A stretch of DNA of 64,000 nucleotides from an uncultured Verrucomicrobiae bacterium (GCA_963718565.1 OY970364.1:608001-672000); one strand, 5' to 3'. Shown: positions 3,876-5,314, counted from the first letter of the stretch. The notes: generated by a model not told the origin, from the sequence alone. Numbers and translations: made by a program.

Positions 3876-5314
3876 GACGACTAATTGCCTTATTTCTTTT
3901 TCCATTGTTTTGCAGTTTGCCGCTTTTCGGAGACCCGTTATACTGCGCGCAGGAAGGTTTTGTGAATTTGGACCCAGCGAGGCAAAGCACAATCGAAGCT
4001 TGCGGTCCGAATGGCGAAGCCATAGTGAAAACTATGACTGAGGAAGAGGATCGATTGGGCAAAGCCGCAGCCAGTCCAAAGTCACAAAACCTGACGGAGC
4101 GCGGTATAAGTCTTGCCGAGCTGATCGATATTGCACTGAAAAACAATCCAGAAACTGCAAAAGCCTGGTCGAATGTGAAACGCGCCCAGGCTGCTGTCGG
4201 TCTGGCTGGAAGTGCCCAGTATCCGCAGTTAAATGCGCAGGGGACGTTGACTCATGCGCGAGAAGTTAAATTCCCCAATGGACCCAACACGGTATTTACA
4301 AACTATGGCGGCGAACTCAATTTAAACTATCTTTTGTTTGACTTTGGCGAGACACGCGCTGCTGTACGTGCGACAAAAGAAGCCCTTCAGTCGGCAAAAT
4401 GGTGGGCGGATTTTGCGATGCAGAAGGTCATTTCGGATGTCTCATCGACCTATTACGAATATTTAAATGCTTCGGAGCTTTTGGCAACGCAAGAAAGCTC
4501 GCTACAAGATGCCAGCATGATTTTAAATTCTGCTGATGAACTTTGCCACGCTGGTTTGCGGGCAGCTAACGATGTGATCACAGCAAAAGCTGCTGTTGCT
4601 GAAATTCATATGCGTCTTGCTCAGCAAACAGCGAACAGTATCATCGCTCATGGGAAACTGCTCACAGCAATGGGACTTCCCATTGAGACATCATTACAGG
4701 TCCAAACGCAGCCCGAAGGCGTGCAAAATCCGCTGTTCAAAGAGTCTATCCCTTTATTGATCAAGTCTGCAGAGGAGCATCGAGCGGATTTAATGGCCAA
4801 ACAAGCCTCGCTTTCCGAAATGAATGCGCGTGTGGATAGGGCCAAACGCGCGCCCCTGCCGAAATTGCGCGCGCTTGGGCAAGCGGGATGGCTCGAGTAT
4901 GGAAGGCATCGCGGAAATGGCTATAATTATAGTGCCGGCTTGGCTCTGGACATTCCACTGTTTAAAGGCTTTGAATATTCGTATCAGAAAAGGTTAGCTT
5001 TGGCTGATGCCGAAATGAGTGCAGCAGAGCTAAAAGAGCTACACAATGCCATTGCTTTTGAGGTGTTGAGCTACAGCGAGACCCTCAAGGCTGCCGAAAT
5101 TGCCATGCACTACAGCGAAGAGTTTTTCAACGAAGCCTTTAAATCTTATGACGGCTCGATCCAAAGTTATAAGGCGGGATTGATCAATATTTTTGATTTG
5201 TTGCAATCGCAACGATTTTTGTCGGATGCACGCGATAAAAAGGCCTTAGCGAGAACAGAGTGGCTTGTTTCACTAGCGCAATTGGCATTTGCCACAGGGA
5301 GTCTTTCACAATGA
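3872..5314 (+). CDS. TolC-family outer membrane efflux protein carrying an in-frame 56-aa palindromic insertion
   Basis: SLAELIDIALKNNPE, YPQL and LFDFG motifs; first gene of the TolC-MFP-RND operon. Confidence 0.92.
   Translation: MRRLIALFLFPLFCSLPLFGDPLYCAQEGFVNLDPARQSTIEACGPNGEAIVKTMTEEEDRLGKAAASPKSQNLTERGISLAELIDIALKNNPETAKAWSNVKRAQAAVGLAGSAQYPQLNAQGTLTHAREVKFPNGPNTVFTNYGGELNLNYLLFDFGETRAAVRATKEALQSAKWWADFAMQKVISDVSSTYYEYLNASELLATQESSLQDASMILNSADELCHAGLRAANDVITAKAAVAEIHMRLAQQTANSIIAHGKLLTAMGLPIETSLQVQTQPEGVQNPLFKESIPLLIKSAEEHRADLMAKQASLSEMNARVDRAKRAPLPKLRALGQAGWLEYGRHRGNGYNYSAGLALDIPLFKGFEYSYQKRLALADAEMSAAELKELHNAIAFEVLSYSETLKAAEIAMHYSEEFFNEAFKSYDGSIQSYKAGLINIFDLLQSQRFLSDARDKKALARTEWLVSLAQLAFATGSLSQ
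3939..4108. mobile_element. Full-length TATAC-end palindromic MITE (family B1), in frame in TolC
   Basis: About 35-bp imperfect TIRs (TATACTGCGCGCAGGAAGGTTTTGTGAATTTGGAC ... GTCCAAAGTCACAAAACCTGACGGAGCGCGGTATA); TA duplicated; net insertion 168 bp. Confidence 0.92.

Follow-up and report, generated by a model that had tools for sequence, protein, structure and literature searches.

An in-frame palindromic element in a TolC-family gene of a chlamydial genome and the repeat family to which it belongs

Introduction

How can a palindromic element of 166 bp come to lie inside the gene of an outer-membrane factor and leave its reading frame open? The question is raised by a stretch of 64,000 nt from a genome titled as that of an uncultured Verrucomicrobiae bacterium (GCA_963718565.1, OY970364.1:608001-672000), referred to below as the window. 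In the window, a TolC-family gene (3872..5314, + strand) carries such an element at 3941..4106, a short distance behind its start codon. A preliminary description made from the sequence had read the element as a miniature inverted-repeat transposable element (MITE) that adds 56 residues to the protein, in the manner of the Rickettsia palindromic elements (RPEs), and had connected it with IS630/Tc1-mariner transposases. We analysed the insert, its relatives in the same and in related genomes, and its host gene. We consider it quite probable that the insert is a copy of a TA-duplicating MITE, that its frame was kept open, that the added tail is tolerated by the protein and that the pattern seen across the family arose by survivorship.

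The insert in the TolC-family gene

The 166-bp TAC...GTA element with inverted ends and TA on both sides, as previously described, was confirmed at 3941..4106 (+ strand). Its terminal inverted repeats occupy 3941..3975 (left, + strand) and 4072..4106 (right, − strand), and the terminal 33 nt match between the two ends at 27 of 33 positions (manual count). The ends are conserved in all subfamilies of the repeat family described below, with the form TACCGCGCGCAGGAAGGTTTTGTGAATTTGGAC across subfamilies A, C, and D. Taken more widely, the arms of the palindrome (3938-3996 and 4051-4109, 59 nt each) are 73% complementary. By size the element is a MITE: it is shorter than about 500 bp, its stop-free frames code only for 56-residue peptides, and it contains no transposase gene, which makes it non-autonomous. 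A simple scan of 3700-4300 found no terminator-like sites and two weak promoter-like sites, versus 0.8 expected.

The element is flanked by TA at 3939..3940 and at 4107..4108, so that the gene gains a net 168 bp, which read as 56 codons free of stops in the host frame. In this frame, called +2, the element is read as 56 residues (YCAQEGF...TERGI), and the open reading frame (ORF) at 3872..5314 carries exactly the peptide given in the preliminary description. Deleting 3941-4108 from the window leaves MRRLIALFLFPLFCSLPLFGDPLSLAELIDIALKNNPE. The claim that such a removal restores a typical TolC-family start was upheld by two congeners, G004 and G013, which read the same empty site. At the homologous point, the DNA of G004 reads ...gga gac cca TTA AGT CTT GCC GAG and that of G013 reads ...TTA AGT CTT GCG. 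Both correspond to the window sequence minus the element and one TA, with a single TA (TTA AGT) in place of the flanking pair. The element was inserted at the TA of a TTAA target, at TTA|A of codon 23/24, and duplicated this TA.

Absence of the insert was seen beyond these two genomes. Nine congeneric TolC orthologues lack the 56 residues: they align with the host protein from residue 72-79 only, and when read from their own start codons, the signal peptide runs directly into LSLAELID. In the orthologue of G010, a short extra segment of its own (ELRDHSEISDKVISERS) stands at the same N-terminal point and has no match to the element. This point of the TolC orthologues seems to tolerate length change generally.

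A repeat family in the genome

The element is one member of a repeat family. A blastn search with the element found about 62 places in the 2,284,058-bp (2.28-Mb) genome, and a search for its termini recovered 39 two-ended copies, with about 20 fragments besides; this two-ended census is a lower bound because the termini pattern missed a divergent copy of 246 nt. The two-ended copies fall into four length classes. Subfamily A, to which the TolC copy belongs, comprises nine copies with a net insert of 168 nt (six copies) or 169 nt (three). Subfamily B is the largest with 19 copies, of which sixteen measure 170 nt, two measure 171 nt, and one is a 128-nt derivative. Subfamily C equals A plus 57 nt and has seven copies (225 nt in four, 227-228 nt in three), and subfamily D has four copies of 91-93 nt. 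The TolC copy is 97.6% identical to its subfamily consensus.

The TA duplication noticed at the TolC site recurs across the family. Among 38 copies checked, TA was present at the left end in 33 and at the right end in 35. The DNA of the element also occurs at intergenic places, again with TA flanks. The remaining places found by blastn are truncated copies, with unrelated sequence beyond the break. A truncated copy is also present in the window, at 339..437 (− strand), where family positions 72-170 (96% identical) lie between two convergent ORFs. The first of these (3..356, + strand) extends six codons into the truncated copy, and the second, a DEAD-box helicase ORF (440..1711, − strand), stops beside it.

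These data bear on whether the insert is mobile DNA at all, or instead a lineage-specific domain or linker of the ordinary kind, a gene for a structured RNA, or an assembly artefact. The element region does fold strongly as RNA (−75.5 kcal/mol, z = −6.7, equalled by 0 of 200 shuffles). Assemblies can misplace repeats, and the public contigs of four DNA runs (X1, X2, X5, and X6) at the region bridge neither insert junction. Against this stand the presence of the same DNA, with the same TA flanks, at intergenic places, and the four private substitutions, exact TA borders, and empty orthologous site of the TolC copy. The element DNA had no match in Rfam at E values up to 1, and the coded peptide matched no Pfam family; together with the orthologues that lack it, this gives no indication that the 56 residues are a conserved domain. 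Contig X6, whose run may be the source sample, begins exactly at 4108 and continues into the gene without difference, a start that fits a repeat border at this position. An origin other than mobile DNA therefore appears highly improbable to us.

Distribution among relatives

Element DNA was matched in 12 of the 18 congeners searched and had no match in 12 genomes from other families of the order. A profile of the +2 peptide, run over 185,579 species (one genome each), led to 97 confirmed stretches. The 80 loci kept of these 97 were all from metagenome-assembled genomes (MAGs); most were titled Chlamydiae, Rhabdochlamydiaceae, Candidatus Rhabdochlamydia, Parachlamydiales, Parachlamydiaceae, or Verrucomicrobia(e), and ten were titled only "bacterium" or "uncultured bacterium". 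The family is restricted to one chlamydial clade.

For a census of copies in relatives, we took near-full-length DNA matches from nine congeners and analysed the 46 loci that surround them. Two of these loci gave no two-ended copy and three gave two, resulting in 47 copies. The net length was a multiple of three in 43 of them, with values of 162, 168, 171, 180, 216, 219, 225, 231, 237, 243, 267, 294, and 297 nt. A total of 31 of the 47 copies were intragenic. Of 15 copies analysed in G005, a congener represented by one contig of 2.09 Mb, 11 were intragenic, and many termini were degenerate (CATAC, AATAC, GATAC); this looks like an old, immobile population surviving mainly in genes.

Host genes differed between genomes. 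In G013, the 168-nt subfamily was found in +2 within a SpoU methyltransferase, a P-type ATPase, and a glutamine amidotransferase, and a 171-nt relative in +2 within a radical-SAM enzyme. None of these four is a host in the genome of the window, and the orthologues of two hosts from the latter, a DUF455 protein and an FtsX-type permease, contain no insert in any congener with a match across the insertion site. The insertions thus arose independently and are specific to their lineages.

Frame and orientation of copies inside genes

Subfamily A has two stop-free frames, +2 (YRAQEGFVNLDSARQSTIEACGPNDEAIVKTMTEEEDRLGKAAASPNSQNLTERGI) and −1. A copy was counted as intragenic on the basis of ORF length, that is, when it was spanned by an ORF that started upstream of it and had 100 or more flanking codons. 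ORFs of at least 300 codons (stop-to-stop) cover 68.5% of the genome, and random insertion would place far more copies mid-gene than the 6 of 39 observed (p = 1e-11). All six mid-gene copies were in the +2 frame, with TA at codon positions 2-3 and the element pointing along the gene. The six in-frame hosts are unrelated to one another: the TolC-family protein (OEP), a TPS-domain protein with the insert six codons before its stop, a DUF455 protein (insert at profile position about 208 of 247), a 328-aa protein with no Pfam match, an FtsX-type permease (insert at residue 386), and TsaE (insert at codon 2). The divergent 246-nt copy (C1:1290330-1290577, − strand), which has CA in place of TA on its left side, is likewise read in +2; its host is a tyrosine-phosphatase protein of about 600 aa, in which the insert comes shortly before the HCHAGVGR loop. 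Two more ORFs satisfy the length criterion in other frames and are short and doubtful.

Copies of subfamily B avoid genes. The 170-nt copies, whose length is not a multiple of three, have a stop in every frame in 15 of 16 cases and a single open frame in the remaining one. No B copy was found mid-gene (0/18); one is located seven codons ahead of a stop and another shortly before a start. In the whole genome, we found no family copy that breaks a gene mid-way, and three apparent cases sit at gene ends or in leaders.

The preference for in-frame copies, which had been anticipated for a coding element of this kind, exceeds chance by far. In the long ORFs of this genome, TA occurs as NTA in 31%, across codons (T|A) in 44%, and as TAN in 25% of cases, so that NTA phase combined with one given orientation is expected with a frequency of 0.156. 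The observed frequency was 6/8 in this genome (p = 3e-4) and 26/31 in the congeners (p = 9e-17), where the other five intragenic copies were in +1 (two), −1 (two), and −2 (one). When only the two open frames were considered (A and C types in this genome and G013), +2 was used in 11 of 11 cases versus 41.5% expected (p = 6e-5). These binomial tests treat copies as independent, which is fair for separate insertion events and unfair for properties common to a subfamily.

A similar bias was obtained from the protein database, where in each of two profile searches scoring was limited to the 8000 candidates with the most words in common. A profile built from eleven +2 peptides matched at least 200 proteins longer than 105 residues, including all six hosts of this genome. 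Among the 120 matches listed, about 70 had Pfam domains, such as formyltransferase, radical SAM, histidine kinase, Omp85 (BamA), MutS, UvrA, DnaX, RecC, Mur ligases, RnpA, and glycosyltransferases. The control profile, built from the −1 peptides of ten of the same copies, matched eight proteins. This corresponds to a bias of at least 25-fold toward +2.

Evolution of the coded peptide

The peptides of the two open frames differ in character. The +2 peptide is hydrophilic and acidic (GRAVY −0.79, 10 D+E, 6 K+R), and the −1 peptide is hydrophobic (GRAVY +0.42). Of 32 in-frame inserts, 17 are situated in the first or last 5% of the host ORF (p = 6e-9). We conclude that other frames and orientations are selected against and that +2 is tolerated best at protein ends.

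The peptide sequence itself evolves in a neutral-looking manner. Relative to the subfamily consensus, intragenic copies have seven synonymous and 18 non-synonymous changes, a ratio near the random expectation of 22% synonymous; the corresponding numbers for non-genic or uncertain copies are six and 12. All four private changes of the TolC copy are non-synonymous. Both observations argue against the possibility that the peptide was recruited for a common function, for instance as a binding or sorting motif, which then maintained the in-frame copies. Such recruitment would agree with the very strong frame and orientation bias, with length variants that are nearly all multiples of three, and with the conservation of the peptide ends YRAQEGFVNLD and SPNSQNLTERGI across subfamilies. 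However, these ends are the inverted repeats themselves, which transposition conserves anyway, and they give no sign of a peptide kept for function. The hosts, as read from their Pfam families, span the outer membrane, the inner membrane, and the cytoplasm; the inserts concentrate at protein termini; and the insertions are lineage-specific, not common to the species sampled. We thus regard recruitment as unlikely, and the data fit a coded peptide that is a tolerated passenger and not a functional module. For the same reason, the preliminary description of a system remodelling proteins is accepted here in part: in-frame inserts do occur in many proteins, but the function that the expression implies is not what the data suggest.

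The host gene and its operon

The host gene is the first in an operon coding for an outer-membrane factor, a membrane-fusion protein (MFP), and a resistance-nodulation-division (RND) pump. Its product has 480 aa with the insert and 424 aa without it, and matches Pfam OEP (E = 2.7e-50) starting at residue 81. The overlapping downstream gene (5311..6384, + strand) matches HlyD_3 and HlyD_D23, and the third gene (6381..9434, + strand) codes for an AcrB-type inner-membrane pump (ACR_tran, E = 4.5e-269). This OEP-HlyD-AcrB arrangement supports the assignment of the host to the TolC family. An N-terminal export signal, MRRLIALFLFPLFCSLPLFGDP, judged by eye to be a signal peptide and conserved in orthologues, is encoded upstream of the insert at 3872..3937 (+ strand). 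Solved chains of TolC, CmeC, and OprM align from query residue 78-86 on, which corresponds to chain residue 8 in most TolC entries. As the matches to OEP and to the TolC chains begin at residues 78-86, the insert follows the export signal and precedes the first residues of the TolC fold.

An AlphaFold2 model computed from a ten-row alignment, which holds the insert in the query row alone, had a mean pLDDT of 69. Mean values per ten-residue block were 26-34 for residues 21-70, which make up most of the insert, and 80-92 for the helical barrel. The model hints that the insert may be disordered in the host protein.

The insertion might also have inactivated or crippled the gene, the frame being open merely because the event is recent. 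A second outer-membrane-factor paralogue is present in the genome (837021-838034), a very stable hairpin is added to the messenger RNA (mRNA), and the formation of pseudogenes linked to insertion sequences (IS) has been described for two closed Rhabdochlamydia genomes in PMC9723776. Several features of the locus speak for a functional gene instead: the 1443-nt frame is intact, as are the MFP and RND genes downstream, and the insert sits at the N-terminus of the mature protein, where it directly precedes the part alignable to solved chains of the TolC family. The protein flanks are 86% identical to the G004 orthologue with a dN/dS of 0.09, although this ratio cannot date or judge the short time since insertion (2.4% divergence of the copy versus a dS of 0.81 between the species). 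Silent death of the gene is improbable in our judgement. Translation of the insert and retention of TolC function are the more plausible outcome, as far as can be judged from sequence.

Mobilisation

IS630/Tc1-mariner transposases typically duplicate a TA target. An IS of the IS630 family, 1126 bp long, is present in the genome; it codes for a 360-aa DDE_3 transposase and shows TA flanks and TAC...GTA tips (e.g., C1 864074-865199). There are 15 Pfam DDE_3 matches in the genome. The IS was probably active recently, since its copies are 99.7-99.9% identical to one another. At two places (353768-353939 and 2015235-2015406), a subfamily-B copy adjoins an IS end at a common TA.

The proposed link between the element and IS630 was supported by the TA duplication; the ends did not extend this support, as the resident IS shares only TAC with the element and none of the 25 further DDE_3 loci scanned in ten congeners carries the element ends. 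A loose ATTKGRAYTC motif occurs 14 nt further inside the ends and was treated as possibly due to chance. Solo ends, considered as ends of a longer element, turned out to be truncated copies with unrelated sequence behind them. Across congeners, the presence of the element and that of DDE_3 do not go together. From the TA duplication alone, we infer mobilisation in trans by a transposase of the IS630/Tc1-mariner type.

Origin and persistence of the insert

The findings can be arranged into the following course of events. A MITE would have entered TTA|A at codon 23/24 of the TolC-family gene and duplicated the TA. The gene stays open because the net insert is 168 bp, the TA falls at codon positions 2-3, and the element is in its stop-free orientation, which codes for the hydrophilic, acidic peptide. 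The predicted product would have 56 extra residues placed after the export signal and ahead of the first helix of the TolC fold; most likely they form a flexible, tolerated tail at the N-terminus. Across the family, the pattern would then be one of survivorship: insertions that break a gene or are read in the hydrophobic frame would be purged, whereas those in the benign frame would persist, mostly at protein ends.

A number of observations weigh against this account. With regard to mobility, the IS ends TACTATTCATGATTGG and TACTCTAGAAAATTGA have TAC alone in common with the element end TACCGCGCGCAGGAAGG, and no autonomous element with matching ends was found in this genome, where the solo ends are truncated copies. 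At 25 further DDE_3 loci from ten congeners, neither the element ends (0/25) nor a TATAC[CGT]GCG tip (0/25) were detected, and G005 has 25 element matches but no DDE_3 match. With regard to coding, translatability is deduced from open frames and database gene calls; the mRNA hairpin of −75 kcal/mol could reduce expression or invite cleavage; and low pLDDT is a weak sign of disorder for an insert present in a single alignment row. With regard to the statistics, the binomial tests overstate significance, since the copies of one genome have a common ancestry; copies were assigned to genes by ORF length and not by a gene finder, and a copy within a few codons of a start could belong to a 5' leader; and the −1 database control may have lost relatives, only 8000 candidates having been scored.

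We also put forward, tentatively, a stronger version of the survivorship account, in which the element lineage has adapted to gene interiors. Selection might keep a length that is a multiple of three (in more than a dozen size variants), one stop-free frame, and a hydrophilic, probably disordered peptide, and coding DNA might serve as a refuge in a gene-dense genome. Where no DDE_3 gene is found today, as in G005, most surviving copies would be intragenic and fixed, and the family could be an ongoing source of tails and linkers in chlamydial housekeeping proteins.

Relation to known systems

No description of MITEs or RPE-like elements in chlamydiae was found in searches of the main texts of open-access articles; this agrees with the preliminary description, which knew of none. 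RPEs (Ogata et al. 2000 and 2002) are the extreme case of in-frame insertion according to a 2024 review of MITEs (PMC10969869), in which the word chlamydia is absent. PMC9723776 treats insertion sequences in Rhabdochlamydia genomes and does not contain "miniature", "palindrom", "IS630", or "in-frame"; PMC9997750, on the same topic, likewise lacks these terms. In passages of the Waddlia genome paper (PMC2878342), repeats are mentioned in general terms only.

The chlamydial family and RPEs, as the latter are summarised in PMC10969869, have in common that they are short palindromic repeats of an obligate intracellular bacterium, that many copies lie in frame in unrelated housekeeping genes and code for a conserved peptide, and that the insertions are judged compatible with the fold of the host protein. 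In contrast to RPEs, the chlamydial family belongs to another phylum, Chlamydiota (Rhabdochlamydiaceae-like MAGs), has a clear TA duplication and inverted ends of roughly 33 nt, and includes a sister subfamily whose length is not a multiple of three and which stays outside genes. The likeness is one of behaviour and does not come from sequence comparison. By this analogy, the reading of the element as one that behaves like an RPE, in Chlamydiota, is supported.

Compared to MITEs of the IS630/Tc1-mariner type, the family shows the same TA duplication, terminal inverted repeats, size of 90-300 bp, high copy number, and derivatives by deletion and insertion, and its genome carries an IS630-family IS (DDE_3) with TA flanks and TAC...GTA tips. 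It differs in that no parent IS with the same ends was found in this genome or at the 25 DDE_3 loci of congeners. ERIC, BOX, and Coxiella QMITE1 are also small mobile repeats able to fuse in frame with host ORFs; according to PMC10969869, such fusions are occasional, whereas the chlamydial family occurs in at least 200 database proteins.

The pattern of selfish DNA inside protein-coding genes known from Rickettsia thus has a counterpart in a second, unrelated obligate intracellular lineage, at a scale of at least 200 predicted proteins for one family. New here are the TolC case, the subfamily structure, the six-frame census over ten genomes, and the database control with the other open frame. 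For annotation, odd inserts of 50-100 residues in the proteins of chlamydial MAGs may be copies of the element and not domains. In comparative work, recent descent can be traced cleanly by whether a site is filled or empty. The family can also be viewed as a natural experiment on tolerated peptide insertions, with the sister subfamily outside genes as an internal control.

Other short repeats in the genome

Several other repeats were seen along with the family. Mini-palindromes of 18 bp (TA-TACGGCGC/GCGCCGTA-TA) occur at ten sites of the genome with at most two mismatches, including one in an intergenic gap of the window (31494-31511). They look like family copies in which everything between the GCGC runs of the two ends has been lost. 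The TATACCGAAATG family is a separate 174-bp element. This 174-bp repeat has TA flanks, a TACCGAAATGAA tip, and about 30 blast hits (e.g., 1650118-1650291 and 371217-371390). At least two families of further short repeats are present. One, with a CATTCAGTGCTTGCC end (130 hits), was initially taken for an IS end and was found to be another short repeat; the other has TCTCCTGCGCTGCG ends that form pairs about 300-350 bp apart.

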